Assembly: GCA_964401835.1 (NCBI GenBank)
Contig: CAYNZP010000006.1
Span: forward strand, 34,020-98,019
From: an uncultured Planctomycetaceae bacterium
GTDB lineage: Bacteria; Planctomycetota; Phycisphaerae; SM23-33
DNA: 64,000 nt
Direction: 5' to 3'
The position numbers were made by a program, and so were the translations under genes. The notes beneath the pieces are model-generated. The model saw nothing but the letters and a program-made list of their open reading frames with translations. It searched no databases and was not told where the DNA came from. Below, piece by piece: positions 2,579 to 39,641 of this stretch; the stretch's first letter is position 1, and every line of letters begins with the position of its first letter.

Positions 2579-3469
2579 ATGGCAGAAAAGGTCCAATTCG
2601 AAGGTTCACTGGTAGCCCTGGTTACCCCCTTTAAAAATGGGGATATTGATTACGACGCTCTCAGAAAACTGATCGATTTCCAGATTGAAAATGGAACGCA
2701 AGGCATCGTTCCATGCGGCACGACGGGTGAATCTCCGACTCTGAATTACGAAGAGCACTACAAGGTTACCGAAGTAGTCGTCGAGCAGGCGGCCGGACGT
2801 GTTCCAGTTATTGCCGGTACAGGCAGCAATTCCACTGAAGAGGCTTTGCGTCAGACCAGGCACGCCAAAGAGGTCGGCGCTGACGGCTGCCTTTTAGTGA
2901 ACCCCTACTACAACAAGCCTACTCAACAGGGAATGTTCGAGCATGTCCAAACAGTAGCAGACGTGCACCTGCCAATTGTGCTTTACAACATACCCTCAAG
3001 AACCGGCATCGAGTTTGACGTCGAAACTGTTATCAGGATGTACGAGGAAATCGAGTTGGTCGTTGCCATTAAAGAGGCTACCGGCAAGCTTGACGTGGCC
3101 AGCGCCATAGCTGCCGGGTGTGACATAACAATTCTTTCCGGCGACGATTCACTCACACTGCCTATCTGCTCGGTCGGTGGTTCTGGCGTTATCAGCGTTC
3201 TTGCGAATATCCTGCCAGCCGAGGTCCGCAAGCTCTGTGACGCCATAAGTGCGTGGGACACGGCTGAGGCATGCCGGCAACACCTGAACCTGTTTCCACT
3301 TTTTAAAGGGATGTTTGTCGAGACAAATCCTATACCGGTAAAGGCTGCCATGGCGATGGCTGGCATGATCGAAAACGAACTCCGTCTGCCGATGACCCCA
3401 TTAAGCAATCAGTACAGAAAACCGCTCGCTGAGATGCTGAATAATTTCGGAGTAGAGGCCAAGGCTTAG
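2579..3469 (+). CDS. dapA: 4-hydroxy-tetrahydrodipicolinate synthase
   Basis: Motifs LVTPF, GIVPCGTTGE and active-site Lys in VVAIKEATG. SD-like AAAGG upstream of the ATG. Confidence 0.9.
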   Translation: MAEKVQFEGSLVALVTPFKNGDIDYDALRKLIDFQIENGTQGIVPCGTTGESPTLNYEEHYKVTEVVVEQAAGRVPVIAGTGSNSTEEALRQTRHAKEVGADGCLLVNPYYNKPTQQGMFEHVQTVADVHLPIVLYNIPSRTGIEFDVETVIRMYEEIELVVAIKEATGKLDVASAIAAGCDITILSGDDSLTLPICSVGGSGVISVLANILPAEVRKLCDAISAWDTAEACRQHLNLFPLFKGMFVETNPIPVKAAMAMAGMIENELRLPMTPLSNQYRKPLAEMLNNFGVEAKA

Positions 3470-29066: not shown

Positions 29067-30047
29067 TTACTGCCCTGACAACTCCCCAATACGCCGCCTG
29101 GCGGTTGCTGCGTTGCCCAGCCGCGGAGGGTCCTGCTCCAGCGAAAGCTTGTAACATTCAAGAGCTTTTGTGTAATTGTGCAGCCGTATATCGTATATAG
29201 TTGCCGCCTGGAATCTTGCAGCCTCGGAAATATTTGGAGCCCACTGCCACGCGCGTTGATACCAGTGAACCGCCCGAACATTTTCGTTGAAGTATTCTTT
29301 GTAAATCTCCGCAATATAGTAAGCGGACATAGCGCTTTTCGTACTGTCGGGATACTTGTTGACCAATTCCAGAAAGAGCATCAAGGCTTCACGCTGCTTT
29401 TGATAATCTGTCACGCCGGGCAAGGGCTTGCCGAACATATAAAGCCTATACGCTTTTGTATAAAGCTCGTCGGCCTCAGATATAACCTTTGTGGGCTTAT
29501 AATCGGGGCCAGGAATTTCAGCATCCAGGAAGTACATGTAGGTACGGACCGGATCGAACCTCTTTTGCATATTCCCGATGAGTTTCGCCTTGAATTGGAG
29601 GTCTTCTCTCTCATAGAAGCCGGCAAGGGCTTCGAGATTCTTGTTGTACTGATTTCTTGCAGAAACCGCATATTCCGCCAGCAGCCGTTCGTCGGCACCT
29701 TCAAGTGACTCCGCGGCTGGCGGGACGATCTTGGGCATGTTGTCCCACTCGAATACTCGAGTCGCATTGAGATTCTTAATTTCCCGCTCTGACCAGCGAT
29801 GCTTATCCAGATTGCCGATTTTCAAATAGTAGTCCCGAAGAACCTTCAGGCGGAACATGTAGTTGACCCTTGCGGTTTCCATTGCTGTTACCGCATCGAG
29901 CTCAGCTGTGTTGTTTGGAGAAACCGCAACCACCCTGGCAATCTTGCCGTCAGCAGTCTTGGGGGGTTCAGGCGGCATATCGCAGCCTGAAATAACCAGT
30001 GAAATCAAAACGAAAAGACCTGTTGAACCGGAAAGAATCCTTCCCAT
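29067..30047 (-). CDS. TPR-like repeat lipoprotein (hypothetical)
   Basis: Lipobox LISLVISGC. The C-terminal half has TPR-like helical repeats (AYYIAEIYKEY...ALECYKLSLEQDP). Confidence 0.55.
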   Translation of the reverse strand: MGRILSGSTGLFVLISLVISGCDMPPEPPKTADGKIARVVAVSPNNTAELDAVTAMETARVNYMFRLKVLRDYYLKIGNLDKHRWSEREIKNLNATRVFEWDNMPKIVPPAAESLEGADERLLAEYAVSARNQYNKNLEALAGFYEREDLQFKAKLIGNMQKRFDPVRTYMYFLDAEIPGPDYKPTKVISEADELYTKAYRLYMFGKPLPGVTDYQKQREALMLFLELVNKYPDSTKSAMSAYYIAEIYKEYFNENVRAVHWYQRAWQWAPNISEAARFQAATIYDIRLHNYTKALECYKLSLEQDPPRLGNAATARRRIGELSGQ

Positions 30048-30189
30048 GGCGTCGCTCCTTACCCAAAAAAACCGTCAATTGGTGCTCAGGTATTATGCTC
30101 AACAGCTTGAATAGTTGCAAGGATTTCAAGGGGAATATGTTTAAGTAAATACAGAGAAGGCGTTCGGGTGAAACGGCCTGTGTCGGGTT

Positions 30190-31185
30190 TTATTGGGAAG
30201 GCTTTTTTGCTTTTCTCGCCAGTGGGTGCGTCTCGTCGTAAATTTCCTTGAGGCGGCTGGTGGACAGGTGCGTATAAATCTGTGTTGTAGAAAGGCTTTC
30301 GTGGCCGAGCATCTCCTGGAGGCTTCTGAGGTCGACTCCGGCATTGAGCATGTGGGTTGCAAAACTATGACGCAGCGCATGGGGGCTGATGTGGATGGGA
30401 ATGCCGGCAATCATCAAATATTTATCTAGCATCCTGCGAACGGACCTGTCCGAGAGTCGCTGTGATGATTTGTTAATGAACAGCGGTCCCCTCTTGGTCG
30501 AGCCCAGAATCCCCCGCCGCTTTTCAAGATAAGCCTCAATGGCTTCAACCGCCTTGTTACCAAGCGGAACAATACGCTCCTTTTTGCCCTTGCCGCGAAT
30601 CCTCAAGGCTTCTGCAAATTCGTCAAGATCCTCGATATTAAGCGATACGAGTTCACTGATTCGCAACCCTGCCGAATAAATCGTCTCCAGTATCGCCTTG
30701 TCACGAGCACCCAGAATTGTCGCGGTATCGGGAGCCTCCAACAATGCTGCTACCTGGTCAACATCCAGGCACTTCGGCAGGCGTTTATCCTGGCGAGGGC
30801 TCCGAATCGCACTGGCAGGCGATGCCTGCAGAAATTCGACACGAACCAGGAATTTGTAAAAACTCCGCAAGGTTGCAAGTTTCCTGGCGATTGTAGCCTT
30901 GGAATAATTACTGTTCCGCATTATCGCGAGATAGCCGCGAATTTCAGTCGGCGTCACCGCCAGCATCATCTTCTCTACCTTGCTGACGGGAAGTTCCACA
31001 TCGGGAAGATCGCCGGCTGTTACTTCAGAAAGGTCGCCCGGACCTTCTTCCATGATGCCGAAAGACGCGATAAATTGAACAAATTGAGTCAGATCCGCTG
31101 AATACGATTTGACAGTATGCGCGGAAAAGTTCCGTTCGCTTTCGAGGTATTCAAGAAATCTGGAAATAACAGGTAAAATGTGCAT
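30190..31185 (-). CDS. tyrosine site-specific recombinase, XerC/XerD type
   Basis: C-terminal catalytic box HALRHSFATHMLNAGVDLRSLQEMLGHESLSTTQIYTHL (R..H..R..Y). XerC/D-like N-terminal core-binding domain. Confidence 0.85.
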   Translation of the reverse strand: MHILPVISRFLEYLESERNFSAHTVKSYSADLTQFVQFIASFGIMEEGPGDLSEVTAGDLPDVELPVSKVEKMMLAVTPTEIRGYLAIMRNSNYSKATIARKLATLRSFYKFLVRVEFLQASPASAIRSPRQDKRLPKCLDVDQVAALLEAPDTATILGARDKAILETIYSAGLRISELVSLNIEDLDEFAEALRIRGKGKKERIVPLGNKAVEAIEAYLEKRRGILGSTKRGPLFINKSSQRLSDRSVRRMLDKYLMIAGIPIHISPHALRHSFATHMLNAGVDLRSLQEMLGHESLSTTQIYTHLSTSRLKEIYDETHPLARKAKKPSQ

Positions 31186-31227
31186 CCAACTTTCCTGGAA
31201 TTCTGAAACAGTCAGAGAATCTCGGCT

Positions 31228-31467
31228 TTAGTCCTGAAAATCTCGTGAACTATTGGTCGGCTCGGGACAAATTACATCCAAGCCATCAATCGCGGCTGTA
31301 TGGGCTACTTGCAGACCAAGCTTGGCCGCATCAAGCCAGTCCAGACCGCTTTGTGGGTCTTTTGCGCTTGAAACGACTTGTTCCATGACCTCGTCTTCAC
31401 AGCCGGAAATGTATTCAAAGACAAATTCCTGCTTGCCCTTACCGAGCCTTATCGTGCGTTTTGACAT
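31228..31467 (-). CDS. hypothetical small protein
   Basis: 79-aa ORF 43 nt upstream of the recombinase on the same strand. No family recognised. Confidence 0.3.
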   Translation of the reverse strand: MSKRTIRLGKGKQEFVFEYISGCEDEVMEQVVSSAKDPQSGLDWLDAAKLGLQVAHTAAIDGLDVICPEPTNSSRDFQD

Positions 31468-31760
31468 AAAGAACCTTTAAGCAATCCAATAACTCATTAA
31501 GTACAAAGCGACCTTGGGGTTATAAAGTAATCACAGGTTGCAATATGGTTATCGGACTAATGGGGCGAAAACTTCAGTAGCAATTTGAGAAAGCGAACAG
31601 CTTTTTTGACATGGAGTTGAGCTAATAGCCTCTATTTTGTATACTTAGAGCCTGTCCTGATAACAATGCGGCTCCGCGTGGTTATTAGGAAACCTGCTAA
31701 CCTATCAGCAGCAAAGTGGAGCAGTTGATTCGGGCATTTCTTTTTTATAAGGGTGAAAAC

Positions 31761-32615
31761 ATGAAACGTCTTATCCGAAAAATTATCTTCCTGATCCTGG
31801 GTGTAATAGTTCTGGTCGGGGCGGTTTCCTGGCTGTTTATCGATCCAATAGCAAAAGCTGGTGTTGAAAAAGGTGCCGGTTTCGCCCTTGGCGTAGAAAC
31901 AAGTGTCGATGATCTCGACCTGAGCCTAATCAGCGGAGACTTGACCATGGACGGATTGACCATCAGCAATCCGGAAGGTTTCAAGAGCCCCCACCTGATG
32001 CGCTACGAGCATTTCGAGTTAAACCTCCAGCCGGGGAGTGTCTTTTCTGACACCATCGTACTAGAAAAGTTCCAGATGGACGGGCTCGAAGTAAATATCG
32101 ATCAAAAGCTGACAAAAAATAACATTTCCGTGATTCTCGACAACCTGAAGAAGTTCGAAAGCGAGGATAAGGAAAAAAGCCCCTCGCAAAAGAAACTCCA
32201 ATTGGACCACCTCTTGATAAACAATGTTGTTGCCAACGTTCACGTGCTCTCTGGAAGAGAAGACTCCAAGCCAATAACAATTAAGATCGACAAGATTGAG
32301 TTAAAAGACGTAACTACAGGCCAGGATGACGGCATTTTGATAAGCGACCTGACGGCCAAGATAGTTGTGGCTGTTATCAATGCGATTGTCGAAAACGGAG
32401 AGGTAAACATTCCTGATGATCTTAATAAAAGCCTGAAGGCCGGCTTGGCCGACACAAAAAAGGCCCTGGAGTCCGCCGCTGACGATTTATTAAAGAAGGC
32501 ATCAGCTGAACTGGAAAAATACAAACCCAAAGAAGGCGAAGATGCCGAAAATGCCGAAAAGTCCCCCGCCGGTGGTTTGTTCGATATACTTGGCGGCTCG
32601 AAGGACGAAGAATAA
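31761..32615 (+). CDS. hypothetical N-terminally membrane-anchored protein
   Basis: MKRLIRKIIFLILGVIVLVGAVSW is a TM anchor. The C-terminus is acidic and low-complexity. Confidence 0.45.
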   Translation: MKRLIRKIIFLILGVIVLVGAVSWLFIDPIAKAGVEKGAGFALGVETSVDDLDLSLISGDLTMDGLTISNPEGFKSPHLMRYEHFELNLQPGSVFSDTIVLEKFQMDGLEVNIDQKLTKNNISVILDNLKKFESEDKEKSPSQKKLQLDHLLINNVVANVHVLSGREDSKPITIKIDKIELKDVTTGQDDGILISDLTAKIVVAVINAIVENGEVNIPDDLNKSLKAGLADTKKALESAADDLLKKASAELEKYKPKEGEDAENAEKSPAGGLFDILGGSKDEE

Positions 32616-32710
32616 GGCAAACACCAGTATCCAGTAGCCTGTAGTTATAATTTACATTGGTACGATATGCGAAGATAGTTGTGGACGAATATTAGTAAGG
32701 AGACAGAAAA

Positions 32711-32950
32711 ATGCGTTTAAGCTTTGGTGATAAGAGGGAAAAAATACGCCTTTTATGTTTGCTGCTTTTGGGGATTTTGTGGTTTGTTCTATATTTACTT
32801 GAAGTCAAAATGATATTTCATCTTATTGCAGTATTAGGTGTATGTGCTTATTTTGCTTCTTTTATCCTATTGCCACCCAAAAAGCATAGGCATCATCTAG
32901 GCAAAAGTGGCGATGATGAAAAAAAGGCGTGTGGAATGGAGATTAGGTGA
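32711..32950 (+). CDS. hypothetical small membrane protein (in the AT-rich island)
   Basis: Two predicted TM helices. Local GC is much lower than the surroundings. Confidence 0.3.
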   Translation: MRLSFGDKREKIRLLCLLLLGILWFVLYLLEVKMIFHLIAVLGVCAYFASFILLPPKKHRHHLGKSGDDEKKACGMEIR

Positions 32951-33122
32951 GGGATCACCACGAAGCAGTGAGTAGGCCATGCAACTTGCCACATGGCAAC
33001 AAAACATTACGACAGATACCGCATTATTGCGGGAAGATGCGATTTGTTATGCAACGAGTTGCATAACCTACAAACTGCCGTTCTCATGGACGATAGTGCA
33101 AGGGGAATAGTTCGGGACAGTT

Positions 33123-33764
33123 ATGAATAAAATGCCTAAAAACCCTCGACTAATGGAAGTTTTAATTAATAACTTACCAAAACCACCCAAGGGTGTTTAC
33201 TTTAGGTACATAGCTCGGAAGAAACAGCTTTACATAAAAGCTGGCATACACCCTCATATTCTCTTTGCATGCCTACTTTGGGTATGGGTACCTATCTATT
33301 TGTTTCTTATGGTACCCTGTGGGGGCAAGGATCTGCTTTTTAAACTTGTTGATGTTATTGTTAATCCAATAGCCTCATATCTTTCTACCTCATCCCTTGT
33401 TATTATAGATATCATTGTGTCCTTGACGCTGCTTTGTCTATCTGTGGCGATTTTGGGTTTACCACTTATTTTCATCATCCGCTTTTTTCGGGCAAGACTC
33501 TGTATCGCGGATTCAAGTCTAAGTATTTCAGGAATTCGTACCCAACGATGGGATTGGAATAGGAACAGAACGATCCAACTTGTTCGGGCAAATAAGAGAA
33601 GGGGTGGCGCGAAAACTATTGCTCAACCCGAGAACACATCAAGAGAAGAACTCGTGATTAATGTAGGCAAAATGAGAATTAATTCCGACCAACTCGAATG
33701 GATTAATAACGTTTTAGTTGAACTTGCTAAACTGTCGCAGGGCAATACGGGGACGGAGCACTAA
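33123..33764 (+). CDS. hypothetical membrane protein (in the AT-rich island)
   Basis: 3-4 hydrophobic helices. AT-rich codon usage unlike the neighbouring genes. Confidence 0.4.
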   Translation: MNKMPKNPRLMEVLINNLPKPPKGVYFRYIARKKQLYIKAGIHPHILFACLLWVWVPIYLFLMVPCGGKDLLFKLVDVIVNPIASYLSTSSLVIIDIIVSLTLLCLSVAILGLPLIFIIRFFRARLCIADSSLSISGIRTQRWDWNRNRTIQLVRANKRRGGAKTIAQPENTSREELVINVGKMRINSDQLEWINNVLVELAKLSQGNTGTEH

Positions 33765-34420
33765 TAAGGGAACATCCCAACGCACTAAAACCCGCCACGA
33801 AACAGAATAACCAAGAAAGCAATTTAAGCAGCATTTCAAATAACCAAAAGGGCAGCTGACTTCTATAAAAGCTTGGCTGCCTTTCCATAGCTCGAATATT
33901 TTGCAAAAATTCTAGGTTTTCGCGCCCTTCGACCTCGCAGGGCAGATCTTTGACAATTGAATATGGGTTAAAATCCGGTACATAGTAGCCCGTGGCCGGT
34001 AGTCAGTAGTCTGGCCGACGTGACAGCGTGGATGAAAGCGGCGGGTGGCATGGCTAGCTTGCAAGCCATGTTCTCGATTCAGGCAACACGCCTTGCGAGC
34101 AAGACGTGCCACACAAAAATCCCAAAAATTTCGGCATAGCGTGCCAACCCGGCGGTGTTTTTCAACGTCGATTGATAGAGCACAGCGTTTAAATGCGGTG
34201 TTAAAAATTTCGAAAAATTCTTCTCATGGCCCGGCCGGGGTTTAGATGCACTGCCGAATTTTTACGTTACCGCTTTGCGCGCGAAGTGGGGGTTTGGGCA
34301 GGTATATATGGAAGGACTATCTTTCCCGAAAAACTTCAGCATTTTTCGTTTTTTGACAATTAAATAGGCGATTTTGAACTCAAGTCCATCAACAGCCACG
34401 GCTTAAGCCATTTAAAAACT

Positions 34421-34520
34421 GGGCAGTTTTGGGCAGAATCGGGCACATTTGGGCAGAACTGGGCAGAACTGGGCAGTATTGGGTAGATTTGGGCAGAATT
34501 GGGCAGTTTCGGGCAGCTTT
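34421..34520 (+). repeat. 10 tandem copies of a 10-bp unit GGGCAGNNNY (perfect 10-bp phasing)
   Basis: Read directly: gggcagtttt gggcagaatc gggcacattt gggcagaact gggcagaact gggcagtatt gggtagattt gggcagaatt gggcagtttc gggcagcttt. Confidence 0.9.
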
Positions 34521-34584
34521 CGGCAAAGAGGCAGCTCGGTTTCGCTGGAGGCTAGGCCGTGGCCAGGGTTCAAAATACAAAAAA

Positions 34585-35991
34585 CTAAATAACCTCAGCC
34601 AGCGTCGTTTTGCCGAGAGATTCACGGGCCAGGCCCTCTACTCGTGATATCCGTTGCGATATCTGCAAATCGAAATTTTCGACAGATAGATCCTTTTCGA
34701 CCGTGCTGATTTCCATCAGTTCCAGCAGCGATATCTTCTCAGCCGGGCGGGCAAGGACGTATGCCTCCTGCAGGTCCGATTCCACTGGATAGACAATTCC
34801 GATGGCCCGCAGTCGTGTCATAATCTTCCCGACCGACGATTCAGGCAAATCAAGCGCGGCAGCTATTTGCTCCATGCTCACCGGCCCGCTACCCTGGCTG
34901 TATGGCTGGGCGACAGCGAAAGCTGCTCCGAGCAACCGGGAATAACTGACTGGCTCTCCCTCTTCGACTGCGTGAATATTCATCCCGGATAAACTTATTG
35001 CGGCATGGGCAAGCTCCGCACCAAAAAGGAATATCAGCCATGAGAGGTTCAGATACAGTAAAAATATTGGAAGCAGGCCCAACGCTCCATACAGGCTGTT
35101 CTTGCCGACCTCGCTGACATAAAGCCCGAACCCCCACCGCGCGACCAGCCAAAGTGGAAGCGCCACAATCGCACCGCCGGCTGCAGCGCGAAATGGTACG
35201 CGAGTGTTTGGCATCAGAGAGTAAATCGCCGCAAGCAAAATCAATCCGATAATCACAGGCCCGATCCATATGGCTGCGGAAACTATCCAGGATACTCCGT
35301 CGTTATCCTCTATCCCGCCCATTATCTGCTTGCCAGCGTAAATCGCACCAGCCATCGCCACCGGTACCAGTGTCAAAACGGACCAATAGACCAAAATCCT
35401 CCGCACAAGAGACCTGCTGCGTGGAGCGGCAAAAATCCGGTTAAGCGACCTTTCTATTGTGGTCAACAAGGTAAGCGCCGTCCAAATCAACAAGACAACG
35501 CCGATGGGACCGATTTTTCCAAGAGTGAGTTTTCGCTCGATCTTCTTTACGAGTTTTTCAATGTGGCCGGATACGGTTATCACATCATTTTCTCTGCGGC
35601 GTCTCCTTGGCCTTTGAGTTTCCTGCTCACCCAGCTGGGATGTTGAAGCATCTTTAAAAGATTCTCTTGCAGGTCGCTTTTCGGTCACGATCTGTATCTG
35701 CGAAAAGCCAACTCCCTCCAGAATATCGCTGAGACGTATATCGCTTTTTTCCACAACACCTACAGATTTCAGCACAAGCAGCGATAGCACAAGAACAGGA
35801 ATCATCGCAAAAAGTGTTCTGAACGAAAGCGCCGCGCTCATCGCCATGGCGTTATGCTCATGAAGCCGCCGGCCACAGAGTCGCCAGAGTTGGATATTAA
35901 TCTTTACAAGCTTTGCCCATCGGCCTAACTCGTCTCCTGGTGCGGTAAGAAGTGTTCTTATACGTTGGCGGAGCTTGCTGATTATTTTCAT
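34585..35991 (-). CDS. YihY/BrkB (virulence factor BrkB / RNase BN-like) family membrane protein with a C-terminal extension
   Basis: Six TM helices with the YihY signature (MSAALSFRTLFAMIPVLVL ... NLSWLIFLFGAELAHA). Confidence 0.75.
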   Translation of the reverse strand: MKIISKLRQRIRTLLTAPGDELGRWAKLVKINIQLWRLCGRRLHEHNAMAMSAALSFRTLFAMIPVLVLSLLVLKSVGVVEKSDIRLSDILEGVGFSQIQIVTEKRPARESFKDASTSQLGEQETQRPRRRRRENDVITVSGHIEKLVKKIERKLTLGKIGPIGVVLLIWTALTLLTTIERSLNRIFAAPRSRSLVRRILVYWSVLTLVPVAMAGAIYAGKQIMGGIEDNDGVSWIVSAAIWIGPVIIGLILLAAIYSLMPNTRVPFRAAAGGAIVALPLWLVARWGFGLYVSEVGKNSLYGALGLLPIFLLYLNLSWLIFLFGAELAHAAISLSGMNIHAVEEGEPVSYSRLLGAAFAVAQPYSQGSGPVSMEQIAAALDLPESSVGKIMTRLRAIGIVYPVESDLQEAYVLARPAEKISLLELMEISTVEKDLSVENFDLQISQRISRVEGLARESLGKTTLAEVI

Positions 35992-38900
35992 TCCGGCTTT
36001 TCCTTTTTGTCTTCGTCTTCAAGTGTGCCGCGAAGAATATCAAATATTGTATCGCCAATATCCTTGTCTTTGGAAGGACGCTTTTGGGGTTTATCTTCGC
36101 CTGGCGGAAGTTGGGAAGGAGATTCTCCGCCGGGAATTTTGAAAATGTCGCCGACCTCCCCGGCTTGTTCGAGAATTAATATTTGAATCGCCCGCCTGAT
36201 AAGACCATCAACATTGACCCGCACAAAGTCCAGAACTGGATTGAGGCGGCTGCCGACAATTGGTATGTCTATCCGCGTTCCATTCAGCACGCGCGCATAA
36301 TCGATAACAGGCCCGCCCACACCAAGTTTATCCAGAAGCTCCGGGCTGATTGGCAGTGAGACGACCAGGTTAACCGTGTCGTCGAAACCGACCGAACCGT
36401 AAAACTTCATATCGAAATCATCGCTAAGTCTCATGACGAAGTTGTCATACTGAATTCGGCCGTTCCTTATCACAAAGTCGACACCGTCAACTTCGACAGT
36501 CTGTTTTTCCTGGCTGGAAAGCGTGCTTAAAAGCAACAGCTGCCTGAAAAGGCCGGTCGGCTGAATCTTCAGATTCCTTAAATCCATATATCCCCTGCCC
36601 CCGCCACCTTGCTTGATGCTTTCACCCAGCGGCAGCGATATATCCCAAGTCTTTAGCGAGACCTTGCCTTCAATTTCCGCCTGACGTGCAAAAATGGGGT
36701 TTATCCTGCTTAATAATTCATCAGCCAGCTCACGGTTGATTTCGACATCTTCCATAACCTGCACGACCCCCGGCAACTGATAGCGAGGCTCGGTCGGCTG
36801 AAAGTCTACCAGGCCCCCCATACGCAACTTTCCGCCCGAAGCGGCAACCGCCGAAACTGGAATGTTGACTCGGCCATCGTCCAGCTTCGCTTCCAGTGTC
36901 GCCCGGCCAAGATTCAGGCCATAAAGCCTGCCGCTATCCCAGCCGAAATTGCTTTGAGCATCGAGACCTTTAAAACCAGGCCTGACGTCTTGCTGACTTG
37001 TCGGGCCGGTCGCACTGAAACTGCTGTTGCGAGAACCCGTGAAGCTGATATTGTCGGCCATCGAAGGGGAAAACTCGCCAAGAAGAGTGGAAAGGCGGTC
37101 CATGTTAACCGTGTAATTTCCGGTAAGTTCGACGATGCGGTCCGTGTCATAGCGCTTTAAATTTCCCGACATTTTTCCGCTTACGAGCCTGGAATTCACC
37201 TCTGCTCTTCGCAGCACAAGGGATTTTTCCTGCTGGTCCAACTCAGCTTCGTAACTAAATTGTGCTTTGGGCTCGCTGAATTGCTTTTCCTCTCCGATGA
37301 CAAAGTTTGCGATTTCGCCTCTGCCGGTGCTGGTAACGGCAGAACCTTTTGAATCAAAGCGACCCGTCCATTGCAGCTCGCCTTCTATAGCAGGCTGCTT
37401 CTTTAGTTCCAAGGTTTTCTTGATTGCGGGCATCGCTTTGCTTAGGTCGCTGTTAATATCGAACGTACCGTTAAGGCTGAGTGGTTCTGTCAGCTTGCAA
37501 TTGATTCCCCGAAAATCGACCCTGGCAACATCACTATCGACAGAGGCCTGTGGAATCTTCAGAGTCTTGTGTTTCCGGGCAAAAGTACTCTCAGCCATAT
37601 TAAAAAGGATATTCCTTTGCGTCACATTCTGGCCATTTACCCGCAGGTCCTCTATTCGCCCGTTTGCGGAAACTGTGATTATCTCTTTCAGAGAAGCCTT
37701 GCCGACTTTCGCATCTGCGGCCAAAATGCCTGAATACTTTTTCAAACCCTCCATACCAAAATAGTCTGCCCGTCGGCCGAGGTAGGCAATTTCGGATGTA
37801 AGTTTTGCGTCGCCTTCAAAAGTCTTCTGCTTGAAATCGTACCAGCCGTCGCCGGAGACAAAAACCGACTCATCAATGCCAAGCTCATTTTCGCTGGCGA
37901 TATACCGCACGGGCTTTTTGTCTTTCAAAACCAGATTGCCTTTATGGCTGAAATCCGCTTTGGCAAAATCCAGATCCCGCTTAGGTGTTTCATATCTGAA
38001 TGAAGAAATATTTGCTTTAACCGCAAAATCAAGCCGGTCTTTTTGAGGGCGGATCACATCAAGTCTTCCTGTCAGATCACCCCAGAGCCGCCCGTCAGTA
38101 AGCTCGAAAATTTCGCCAAATTGCCTGTCAAGTTGCTCAAGGTTCAGGCTGAAATCCGTAGTCATATTATCTGCGGACGCATTTACCTCCGCATTTCCGA
38201 ATCCGGTTTTGATATCCCCGAAAAGTAACACGCCCCGCTGCTCTTGGGAATCGGCGGAGATTCTCAAGACAATAGGCTCGGAGCGGATTATTCTGCCGGC
38301 TTTGGTAGCCTGCAAATCTTTTAGTTCCACTCTCGCTTTGGCAGTCGGTGTTTCACCGCCAATGACAAGGAATTCCGAAATATCCAAGCGCCCCTGTTGA
38401 ATATCAACGTCTCGTTTGAGTTTCATAACAGCCGGAATCGAATCGCCAAGAGTAGGAAGATCGATTTTCCCGGACGCCTCAAGATTGAACTCAGACAATT
38501 CAAGATGCTCGCCAGCCATGGCCGCTGAGGCAATCTTGTCCGCCTTGAACTTCGGAAATCCCTTATCACGCGGATAGATGAGCAAGGCCTGGAATTCACC
38601 CGCCCTACTGGCAACGGAAAGCTCACCTTTGACATTTGACTCATCCGGCAAAAGCCTGCCGACAACTGAAACATCTATAGGCTTTATTTCTACCGCCCCA
38701 TCGCGCGGGGTGTGAAGATCGGTTATCGTGGCATCAAGGTTGCCAGTTAGCTGCCGGCCTTGCTTGAGGGTCGCGTCAATTTCCAGACTCAGCTTGCCGG
38801 CTACCACGGCATCTTCCAGTGCGAACTCTGTCAACGACGCCAGGTCGATATTGTAATCGCTGAAGACCCTCACCTCCCCGTTGGCCCGGTCAGGGGTTAA

Positions 38901-39641
38901 TTTGCCGTCCTGCAAAAGCTCCCTTATCTCGAGCTCGCCGCTCAGAACCCCCTGCTGGCCAAGTTTTGCCTTCAGACCGCCAGTGATTTCGTTGAGCGTA
39001 TTGAGCTCAAATCCACCGTTGATATCACGAACGTCATAACTCCGCCCATCTTCTCTGACAAGTTGAACATTCATATCCCGCAGAATCAATTTGCCTTTGG
39101 GTTGGGGCATGGGTTCGTCGTGGTCGTAAGGTTTTGGTTTGCTTGGCTCTAGCGCCTGAACTAATGATATTCCGCCGTCATCAGAGATATGAAGAACCGC
39201 ACTGGAATCATCAAGGTTAACCTGTTCAAAATTTTCGACTTCTGTAACAGCTCTCCAGACACCGCCAGCCCAGCTTATATTCTCAACTTCCAGAACATTC
39301 CGACCGCCGACGTCCTTTACGCTCAAGCTGTTAATCTTTGTAGGTCCAAGCCACGAAATTGAAAGGTCTTCGGCCTCGATGTCTCCCTTTACCTGCCCGC
39401 TGAGAATTGAAAAGGCCAAACTTGTTCCGGGCCCGGTGGAAATCAAATATGGCAGGATGAAAACGAGCATCGTGAGGAACACCGATAAAGAAACAATCCA
39501 AATCAATCGCCTGTGTTTGCGCTTTTTACTAACGGTAGCTTTTTTTATACCGTGTTTCATAGCCCGCCTCCCCATTAAGAAATGACCCCTACAAGGGCCA
39601 AACGTAAGCCAGAATTCTTCATAACATTCTATCAACGACAC
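35988..39641 (-). CDS. AsmA/TamB-like giant envelope protein (1217 aa)
   Basis: N-terminal TM anchor followed by a long beta-rich region with an AsmA/TamB-like N-terminus. Overlaps yihY by 4 nt. Confidence 0.7.
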   Translation of the reverse strand: MSLIECYEEFWLTFGPCRGHFLMGRRAMKHGIKKATVSKKRKHRRLIWIVSLSVFLTMLVFILPYLISTGPGTSLAFSILSGQVKGDIEAEDLSISWLGPTKINSLSVKDVGGRNVLEVENISWAGGVWRAVTEVENFEQVNLDDSSAVLHISDDGGISLVQALEPSKPKPYDHDEPMPQPKGKLILRDMNVQLVREDGRSYDVRDINGGFELNTLNEITGGLKAKLGQQGVLSGELEIRELLQDGKLTPDRANGEVRVFSDYNIDLASLTEFALEDAVVAGKLSLEIDATLKQGRQLTGNLDATITDLHTPRDGAVEIKPIDVSVVGRLLPDESNVKGELSVASRAGEFQALLIYPRDKGFPKFKADKIASAAMAGEHLELSEFNLEASGKIDLPTLGDSIPAVMKLKRDVDIQQGRLDISEFLVIGGETPTAKARVELKDLQATKAGRIIRSEPIVLRISADSQEQRGVLLFGDIKTGFGNAEVNASADNMTTDFSLNLEQLDRQFGEIFELTDGRLWGDLTGRLDVIRPQKDRLDFAVKANISSFRYETPKRDLDFAKADFSHKGNLVLKDKKPVRYIASENELGIDESVFVSGDGWYDFKQKTFEGDAKLTSEIAYLGRRADYFGMEGLKKYSGILAADAKVGKASLKEIITVSANGRIEDLRVNGQNVTQRNILFNMAESTFARKHKTLKIPQASVDSDVARVDFRGINCKLTEPLSLNGTFDINSDLSKAMPAIKKTLELKKQPAIEGELQWTGRFDSKGSAVTSTGRGEIANFVIGEEKQFSEPKAQFSYEAELDQQEKSLVLRRAEVNSRLVSGKMSGNLKRYDTDRIVELTGNYTVNMDRLSTLLGEFSPSMADNISFTGSRNSSFSATGPTSQQDVRPGFKGLDAQSNFGWDSGRLYGLNLGRATLEAKLDDGRVNIPVSAVAASGGKLRMGGLVDFQPTEPRYQLPGVVQVMEDVEINRELADELLSRINPIFARQAEIEGKVSLKTWDISLPLGESIKQGGGGRGYMDLRNLKIQPTGLFRQLLLLSTLSSQEKQTVEVDGVDFVIRNGRIQYDNFVMRLSDDFDMKFYGSVGFDDTVNLVVSLPISPELLDKLGVGGPVIDYARVLNGTRIDIPIVGSRLNPVLDFVRVNVDGLIRRAIQILILEQAGEVGDIFKIPGGESPSQLPPGEDKPQKRPSKDKDIGDTIFDILRGTLEDEDKKEKPE

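Follow-up and report, generated by a model that had tools for sequence, protein, structure and literature searches.

Phased direct-repeat arrays that bind proteins are already known as a kind, and several such systems invite comparison with the element described here, an array of ten GGGCAG-cored decamers on a 64,000-nt stretch of DNA (hereafter the window) from an uncultured Planctomycetaceae bacterium of the class Phycisphaerae (contig CAYNZP010000006.1 of assembly GCA_964401835.1). At the RNA level, TRAP, an 11-mer, binds repeated (G/U)AG triplets separated by variable spacers of 2-3 nt in the trp leader and the trpG and trpP mRNAs of Bacillus. On DNA, iterons are typically 17-22 bp long and are accompanied by a rep gene, DnaA boxes and an AT-rich unwinding element, CRISPR repeats measure ~23-50 bp and alternate with unique spacers of similar length, and PhoB-type sites follow a core-plus-A/T-spacer design. 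The centromeres of ribbon-helix-helix proteins (ParG on parH of TP228, ParR on parC of R1 and pSK41) are arrays of ~100 bp with 8-12 direct-repeat boxes and regular A/T-leaning spacers, in which the box is read directly, the spacer indirectly, and the DNA is coated cooperatively (PMC3130281, PMC2241845, PMC5016525). For instance, parH places 12 short boxes and AT-rich spacers in ~100 bp, is coated by ParG and tolerates changes in the number and arrangement of its units (PMC3130281), and ParR contacts 10-bp repeats (PMC5016525). Operators of the OmpR/PhoB family, such as the PHO boxes of Streptomyces PhoP, are built of head-to-tail repeats in which 6-7 bp are conserved and 4 bp less so; well-conserved "core" units are followed by degenerate "extension" units, and the poorly conserved units are filled cooperatively (PMC2275107). 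Finally, prokaryotic satellites, or variable-number tandem repeats, form tandem arrays between genes; their copy number differs from strain to strain, and assemblies break at them (PMC6749651).

The window array shares features with some of these. As in partition centromeres, regular short repeats cover 50-150 bp (here 10-11 units in 100-110 bp), and the AAT(C/T) preference of the spacers matches the core-plus-A/T-spacer design of ParG/parH (PMC3130281). In contrast, its period is 10 bp and its core 6 bp, whereas parH combines 4-bp boxes with 4-bp spacers and R1 parC groups its repeats in two sets of five; moreover, no partner ParA/ParM or centromere-binding gene accompanies the array, which sits in a chromosomal housekeeping setting and has unrelated neighbours across the class. 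The OmpR/PhoB pattern of 6-7 conserved bp followed by 4 weak, A/T-leaning bp recurs in our position weight matrix. However, PhoP units are 11 nt long, and shortening them to the 10 nt seen here sharply cuts PhoP binding (PMC2275107); such operators also usually hold 2-6 units (up to 8 reported) instead of 10-13, and occupy defined promoter positions; across the arrays of the present set, the next start codon lies 17-340 nt away. TRAP targets resemble the arrays in that ~9-11 short motifs are conserved and the spacers between them are not, that they occur in 5' leaders or across ribosome-binding sites, and that the number of motifs matches the ring protein, but they are built from triplets instead of hexamers with strictly 4-nt spacers; we know of no TRAP-like protein in this lineage. 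Unlike satellites, the element combines an invariant core with free spacers, a division kept across orthologues.

In the window, the ten GGGCAGNNNY units described in the initial annotation stand exactly as reported, including the 10-bp register and the pyrimidine at position 10, which is T or C in every unit. From 34421 onwards on the plus strand, units 1-5 read GGGCAGTTTT, GGGCAGAATC, GGGCACATTT, GGGCAGAACT and again GGGCAGAACT, and units 6-10 GGGCAGTATT, GGGTAGATTT, GGGCAGAATT, GGGCAGTTTC and GGGCAGCTTT; eight of the ten cores are exact, with one mismatch each in unit 3 (GGGCAC) and unit 7 (GGGTAG). The degenerate eleventh unit that had also been noted is present (Table 1). Tandem Repeats Finder returned a period of 10, 10.2 copies, 78 % matches and no real indels, together with a weaker higher-order periodicity of 20 and 30 bp. 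Among 56 copies of GGGCAG in the window (35 expected), the eight exact copies of the array all lie on the plus strand, and there is no second array of such kind. A two-unit pattern with up to 2 mismatches matched 17 times, against 5.6 expected from shuffles, and ten of these matches are consecutive array positions; this excess is owed solely to the array and lies far beyond chance. Mismatches to the consensus, eleventh unit included, are distributed unevenly, as they hit 4/66 core positions vs 16/44 spacer positions (Fisher p=7.6e-5). With 10-bp units, 4-nt spacers and no significant match to an Rfam CRISPR repeat, the array is not a CRISPR, as had been recognised before. A coding repeat peptide (GQNWAELGRI-type, in all three frames) was rejected, since there is no consistent open reading frame (ORF) and copy number shifts by 20 bp. 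Counts of GGGCAG over the 64 kb revealed no convincing strand switch of the kind expected from KOPS-like polarity.

Arrays with the same core recur elsewhere in the class. Other loci were sought by pattern scans of genomes and metagenomes with three exact cores, and all figures on them apply to the matches listed. Most of these sets were unrelated to the window element, comprising (GGGCA)n and perfect decamer microsatellites in GC-rich genomes and, from the metagenomes, alga-associated GGGCAGTA[AC]G satellites and AT-rich organelle-like contigs. A coherent set carries the exact GGGCAG core with varied spacers leaning towards AAT(C/T) (Table 1). Same-core arrays are present in at least four lineages of Phycisphaerae, represented by the window, L144/L252, L194/L249/L250 and L018; L222/L251, L231 and L128/L234 are further GC-rich contigs outside this count. 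The shared core spans lineages of 50-71 % GC at non-homologous loci. Three sets, L249/L250, L251 and L252, were fetched by protein identity from the L194, L222 and L144 clusters, respectively, and are independent of the pattern. Nevertheless, the element is rare: it is absent from six yihY-anchored loci of other Phycisphaerae (six lineages, ~100 kb of unbiased DNA), in which synteny downstream of yihY is not kept either, and it is therefore no accessory of yihY, its neighbour in the window. A seven-unit array of GGG[CA]AG decamers on a low-GC contig (L225, 1577-1646), just past the 3' end of a Bacteroidetes-type tyrosine integrase gene, looks like arm-type sites and belongs to a different biological setting, unrelated to the window element.

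Constraint is also indicated by the comparison of related arrays. In the orthologous four-unit arrays of L249 and L194, which occupy the same place (as does that of L250) in an intergenic region ~75-82 % identical overall, all 24 of 24 core bases are identical, whereas only 7 of 16 spacer bases match. L251 and L222 share ~100 nt of upstream flank, with 6 exact plus 2 degenerate units in the former vs 12 in the latter, built on the GGGCAG core in both, and both retain array and flank despite a difference in the following ferritin-like gene, which is present directly after the array in one and absent in the other (L222 579-1664 vs L251 200-331). Near-identical strains with an identical purD protein carry 11 units (L252) vs 13 (L144/L255), differing by one 20-bp block. 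Copy number between close strains hence behaves as in satellites, and ranges from 4 to 13 units across the arrays, but substitutions are not spread evenly over the unit, neither in the window nor between orthologues. In a lineage-weighted position weight matrix, positions 1-6 hold 1.1-2.0 bits, with G2 and C4 nearly invariant, and positions 7-10 hold 0.3-0.4 bits with an AAT(C/T) preference, which persists in genomes of 63-71 % GC; the spacers of L018 and L194 are GC-rich. Despite heavy spacer substitution, no change in spacer length was found inside any array, the period being exactly 10 bp throughout, and the sharp 5' edge and decaying 3' edge of the window array return in L144/L252, L222 and L251. 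Turnover by slippage with core and register nonetheless maintained bears the mark of a core-reading ligand.

Repeat number, whose possible variation between strains was raised in the initial annotation, does vary at the L252/L144 locus. The window locus occurs in four assemblies from different samples with 0-1 mismatch where aligned without gaps (21.4 kb in L002, 17.5 kb in L003; L001 has an indel ~7 kb upstream of the array), and because these assemblies are near-identical, their matching arrays say nothing about population variation. Furthermore, contigs break inside the arrays of L004 (ending at window position 34496), L253 and L231 (both at their start), so that metagenome assemblies tend to under-represent or truncate such arrays.

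The arrays form the right end of long non-coding stretches (656 nt in the window, ~920 nt in L252, at least 450 nt in L222 and ~465 nt in L249). A co-directional gene, variously purD, miaA or a ferritin-like, nitrilase, aldo-keto-reductase-like or xylulokinase-like gene, starts 17-340 nt after the array, and in the window, L128, L234 and L196 the 3' end of a convergent gene follows instead. As the neighbours differ between loci, the element is not the operator of one particular gene. No sigma-70-like promoter was detected in the array region of the window, in L249 or in L222, and L252 carries a good, complete one (TTGACA-17-GACAAT) that points into the array from ~60 nt upstream.

We tentatively favour the view that the array serves as a platform, a row of phased sites, for a DNA protein that binds cooperatively and with sequence specificity. 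Such a protein would read the 6-bp core, with its essentially invariant G2 and C4, in the major groove once per 10 bp and the A/T-leaning 4-bp spacer only indirectly, and neighbouring protomers would bind head-to-tail and cooperatively, coating ~100 bp. Since 10.0 bp falls short of the helical repeat, the proposed protein filament would turn gradually about the DNA. The element would be an autonomous part of the Phycisphaerae chromosome and not of a plasmid or prophage, and might act as a roadblock or insulator between transcription units, in control of an adjacent promoter or leader, or as a structural or tethering site. The exact register, the constant spacer length, the variation focused on the spacers, also in the pattern-independent orthologues, the AAT(C/T) preference, the recurrence across the class beside differing genes and three extra same-strand copies of GGGCAG upstream of the window array speak for this platform; the array itself and its turnover in copy number are likewise observed, and we infer that the ligand is a protein, the target DNA and not RNA, and the binding cooperative. 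The functional evidence is comparative and comes from a sample of modest size. Of the earlier proposal of a ParR-, omega- or Rep-like site or operator array, the part that survives is the constraint, which fits a ligand reading a six-base core in every ten; its link to partition or replication does not.

Several points weigh against such a platform. Tandem duplication yields register automatically and few indels are expected, making the persistence of the register weak evidence, and the many other short tandem arrays in GC-rich intergenic DNA of Phycisphaerae raise the prior for neutral slippage. Most arrays outside the window were recovered with a query of three exact cores, which in part presupposes that their cores are conserved; only L249, L251 and L252 are free of this bias. 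The OmpR/PhoB-type PhoP binds a 10-nt repeat much worse than an 11-nt one (PMC2275107). In addition, the distance to the next gene varies between 17 and 340 nt, three to four loci offer only a convergent gene end, and no constant promoter geometry stands out; the G-rich strand is the sense strand in 6/7 loci with a gene start within ~350 nt; and neither a binding protein nor a candidate gene consistently adjacent to the arrays was found.

This strand bias (seen in L144/L252, L222, L251, L231, L194/L249 and L018) is one attraction of the main alternative, which we consider somewhat unlikely, namely that transcribed, unstructured GGGCAG repeats form a multivalent RNA site for an oligomeric, TRAP-like RNA-binding protein. 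The array would then be transcribed as a 5' leader at most loci and, in the window, as a long 3' trailer or on its own, and would control termination or ribosome access. The last unit of the L194/L249 array directly adjoins the miaA Shine-Dalgarno sequence, 17 nt before the ATG, which places part of that array at least in a leader or promoter; the L252 promoter reads into its array; the array strand lacks the complementary CUGCCC and would stay single-stranded; and the 10-13 units of the long arrays resemble the stoichiometries of ring proteins. A range of 4 to 13 units fits a fixed ring badly, however, and an RNA ligand would tolerate changes in spacer length, of which there are none. Nor does the region in the window hold a promoter-like site on either strand or any Rfam family, no gene follows on the array strand in the window, L128 or L234, and the L196 array is oriented opposite to the gene after it. 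It is unlikely, too, that the arrays are slippage-driven satellites without a ligand, at most copy-number "rheostats" that alter the distance between flanking signals. The 20- and 30-bp periodicity, the 20-bp block gained or lost between near-identical strains, the 8 vs 12 units of the orthologous L251 and L222 arrays, the contig breaks, the many heptamer arrays of varied sequence in similar intergenic regions and the existence of prokaryotic satellites (PMC6749651) all agree with such an origin. Yet neutral decay should strike cores and spacers alike, and the cores are spared both in the window and in pattern-independent orthologues; moreover, the same core stands at non-homologous loci of several lineages spanning 50-71 % GC, the AAT-leaning spacer runs contrary to the base composition of those genomes, and an element found nowhere in ~100 kb of unbiased Phycisphaerae DNA is unlike a generic slippage product.

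The remaining explanations fare worse. It is very improbable that the minus strand, (AWWWCUGCCC)n with ~40 % C and 10 % G, serves as a rut-like Rho loading tract in a C-rich, G-poor 3' trailer of yihY: although the array starts 55 nt after the yihY stop, the L128 and L234 arrays lie 3-44 nt past convergent stops and a weak terminator-like site occurs farther along the yihY strand, the C-rich strand is antisense to the 5' region of the adjacent gene at most other loci, yihY homologues elsewhere lack the array, and Rho requires neither a conserved hexamer nor a strict period. We regard as equally improbable a purely structural role, either as a G-quadruplex-prone (G3N7)n tract, since the plus strand formally fits the G3-N7 rule, or by intrinsic curvature, with GC-rich cores alternating with A/T-rich spacers at 10 bp. 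The curvature prediction that had been suggested was unremarkable (83rd percentile of the window with the wedge parameters used), and L128/L234 units such as TGTCAG and CGTCAC keep G2-C4-A5 and lose the G-run, which, together with the GC-rich spacers of L018 and L194, indicates that core base identity is conserved and not G-runs or A-tracts. Close to refuted is the context preferred in the initial annotation, in which an integrated plasmid or prophage would have left a centromere or iterons behind. In its favour are the likeness to the ~100-bp parH array with 12 short boxes and AT-rich spacers (PMC3130281) and to the 10-bp repeats bound by ParR (PMC5016525), along with an AT-rich stretch with orphan ORFs upstream. 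The recombinase invoked as a sign of mobility passes the equivalog threshold of XerC and is a housekeeping protein, which does not point to a mobile element. Within ±10 kb, gene calls and scans with Pfam and NCBIfam, which cover ClpB, a methyltransferase, a CLIPPER-domain protein, a giant DUF748-like protein, YihY, an AsmA/DUF748 protein, XerC, DUF1844, CTP synthase, KdsB, EF-P and orphans, yielded none of the par, rep or ribbon-helix-helix genes that were to be sought; neither an adjacent binder gene with a ParA/ParM/TubZ NTPase nor a mobile replicon is at hand, and par genes are missing around L249, L251 and L252 as well. An iteron-type replication origin was rejected given the 10-bp units, the lack of a rep gene, of a DnaA box (none with up to 1 mismatch in 29811-35747) and of a GC-skew turn at the array site. 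The array matched none of 72,556 plasmids and 50,697 phage records (a low-complexity filter could hide weak matches), the core pattern hit 2.9 million viral contigs three times, always in unrelated sequence, and the homologous arrays lie among housekeeping genes, as does the window locus on contigs of 104-150 kb. The window array is almost certainly not a mobile-element remnant.

Within the window, the array closes 820 nt (33765-34584) between two convergent ORFs, its end lying 55-65 nt past the yihY stop codon (34585-34587, minus strand). The ORF list confirms the earlier description of a gene-free stretch beside yihY with only repetitive-peptide frames, as the ORFs within it are short and implausible and those that cross the array spell a single decapeptide in its three cyclic phases. 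A non-coding RNA proposed for 33780-34400 gained no support: an Rfam scan of the whole window gave no match there at gathering score, and Rfam returned only noise at E<=10 in the region and nothing at the arrays of 11 related loci, a tRNA/tmRNA scan found nothing at the array, and folding of the 461 nt upstream (33960-34420) did not exceed shuffles on either strand (z -1.19 and -0.77). The closest YihY homologues, named Phycisphaerae, Phycisphaerales or Planctomycetota, are only 50-52 % identical; therefore, orthologous intergenic DNA for comparison is lacking and the organism is deep-branching, Phycisphaerae-like and without close sequenced relatives.

Table 1. Features around the window array and same-core arrays at other loci
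Feature	Position or locus	Strand	Remarks
XerC (the "recombinase" of the initial annotation)	30190-31185	-	equivalog TIGR02224, 341 bits, cut-off 335; 3.2 kb away
Orphan 213-aa ORF, membrane-like	33123-33764	+	upstream neighbour, array strand
Upstream stretch, 656 nt	33765-34420		no convincing gene, Rfam match or significant predicted RNA structure
Isolated GGGCAG	33850-33855	+	5' arm of small hairpin GGCAGC...GCTGCC
Isolated GGGCAG, then TTGACAATT	33940-33958	+	TTGACAATT at 33950-33958
Long imperfect inverted repeat	34044-34112		inside the only part of the spacer region with genome-typical GC
Weak terminator-like hairpin and T-run	34113-34147	-	yihY strand; 1 site vs 1.9 in shuffles, not significant
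Isolated GGGCAG	34296-34301	+	125 nt upstream of array; L252 counterpart 132 nt upstream of its array
TTGACAATT, resembling a -35 box	34353-34361	+	68 nt upstream of array, without acceptable -10 element
Ten-unit array	34421-34520	+	GGGCAG core plus 4-nt spacer, consensus GGGCAG-A-W-T-Y, exact 10-bp register
Decaying 3' edge	34521-34534	+	eleventh degenerate unit CGGCAAAGAG at 34521-34530, then out-of-register GGCAG from 34530
yihY/BrkB membrane protein, C-terminal Rrf2-like winged helix	34585-35991	-	convergent neighbour
Array, 13 units	L144		150 nt upstream of purD; purD named Phycisphaerae bacterium (exact-sequence protein cluster)
Array, 12 units	L222
Array, at least 6 units	L231		at contig end
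Arrays, 10 units each	L128, L234		variant cores TGTCAG, CGTCAC, GGGCAC
Array, 4 units	L194		ends 1 nt before miaA Shine-Dalgarno; miaA cluster named Phycisphaerales/Phycisphaerae bacterium
Array, 5-6 units	L018		Phycisphaerae metagenome-assembled genome (MAG)

On the array strand, the three isolated copies of GGGCAG exceed the ~0.18 that 656 nt of one strand should hold (Poisson p ~8e-4). TCGCAGGGCA occurs at 33735-33744 and 33935-33944, exactly 200 bp apart, and the two copies of TTGACAATT are 403 bp apart. If used, the hairpin on the yihY strand would put the array in a yihY 3' UTR (untranslated region) of ~470 nt. GC content is 0.36-0.47 at ~31.0-33.9 kb vs ~0.51, and regains the genome level inside 33850-34300; the AT-rich part (31000-33900) carries orphan ORFs, among them two of 79 aa without family match. 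The 213-aa ORF has no Pfam/NCBIfam match and no homologue beyond its own species among 5.8 billion proteins, and as an orphan it was discarded as a partner of the array. On the other side, the Rrf2-like winged-helix fusion to YihY/BrkB is also found in most Phycisphaerae homologues. yihY overlaps by 4 nt a 1217-aa ORF (35988-39641, minus strand) without Pfam match. In L007, L256 and L258, yihY is likewise preceded by a giant or DUF748-type protein, a hint that the two genes form a conserved pair.

Upstream sequence common to the window and the other loci reached only chance-level scores (local alignment, blastn-short). The only 9-mer common to three lineages is TTGACAATT, about what chance or -35 boxes would give, which in L252 and L194 also lies upstream of the arrays, in palindromic clusters. 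A similarity to L144 noticed by eye (TTTGACAAYYGAATA ... CCCGTRGCCGGTAG) was set aside as not statistically outstanding. Perfect palindromes CACGTTTG-N6-CAAACGTG occur ~300 nt upstream of the arrays at the unrelated loci L252 (7416-7439) and L222 (156-177), with a second, partial copy in L252 within a ~45-nt repeated segment. Furthermore, heptamer tandem arrays of many sequences crowd the intergenic regions of GC-rich Phycisphaerae (L249 519-635, 2087-2156, 5464-5539 and 5757-5825; L005 924-1016; L018 7871-7907; L251 1371-1403), including GGAAC-type arrays that face inverted GTTCC copies upstream of miaA, and are reminiscent of cyanobacterial STRR repeats. About 2 kb downstream of its array, L222 encodes a bacterial RNase P RNA (219 bits) and a tRNA (2694-3110), which have no relation to the array but help to place the contig.

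In the literature searched we found no description of such arrays; what it held were general studies of satellites in prokaryotes, of centromeres and of operators of response regulators. What appears to be new is a chromosomal, class-wide version with a 10-bp register and 4-13 units, without known partner. Gene regulation and chromosome organisation are almost unexplored in Planctomycetota, and the 10-mer consensus, which can be synthesized, offers a handle to fish for a nucleic-acid-binding protein. Even if the arrays were neutral satellites, a mutational mechanism would have to account for why variation falls on the spacer and spares the core. With this handle one can further ask if "coated" arrays on bacterial chromosomes serve in roles other than plasmid partition. 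It is possible, although we put it forward with a little more reserve than the DNA platform itself, that 4-13 phased GGGCAG decamers constitute a rare, class-wide chromosomal cis-element that is loaded by an oligomerising DNA- or RNA-binding protein and controls or insulates housekeeping units. If so, Phycisphaerae would possess a chromosomal counterpart of the plasmid centromere or of TRAP-type multivalent sites, with a new ligand.

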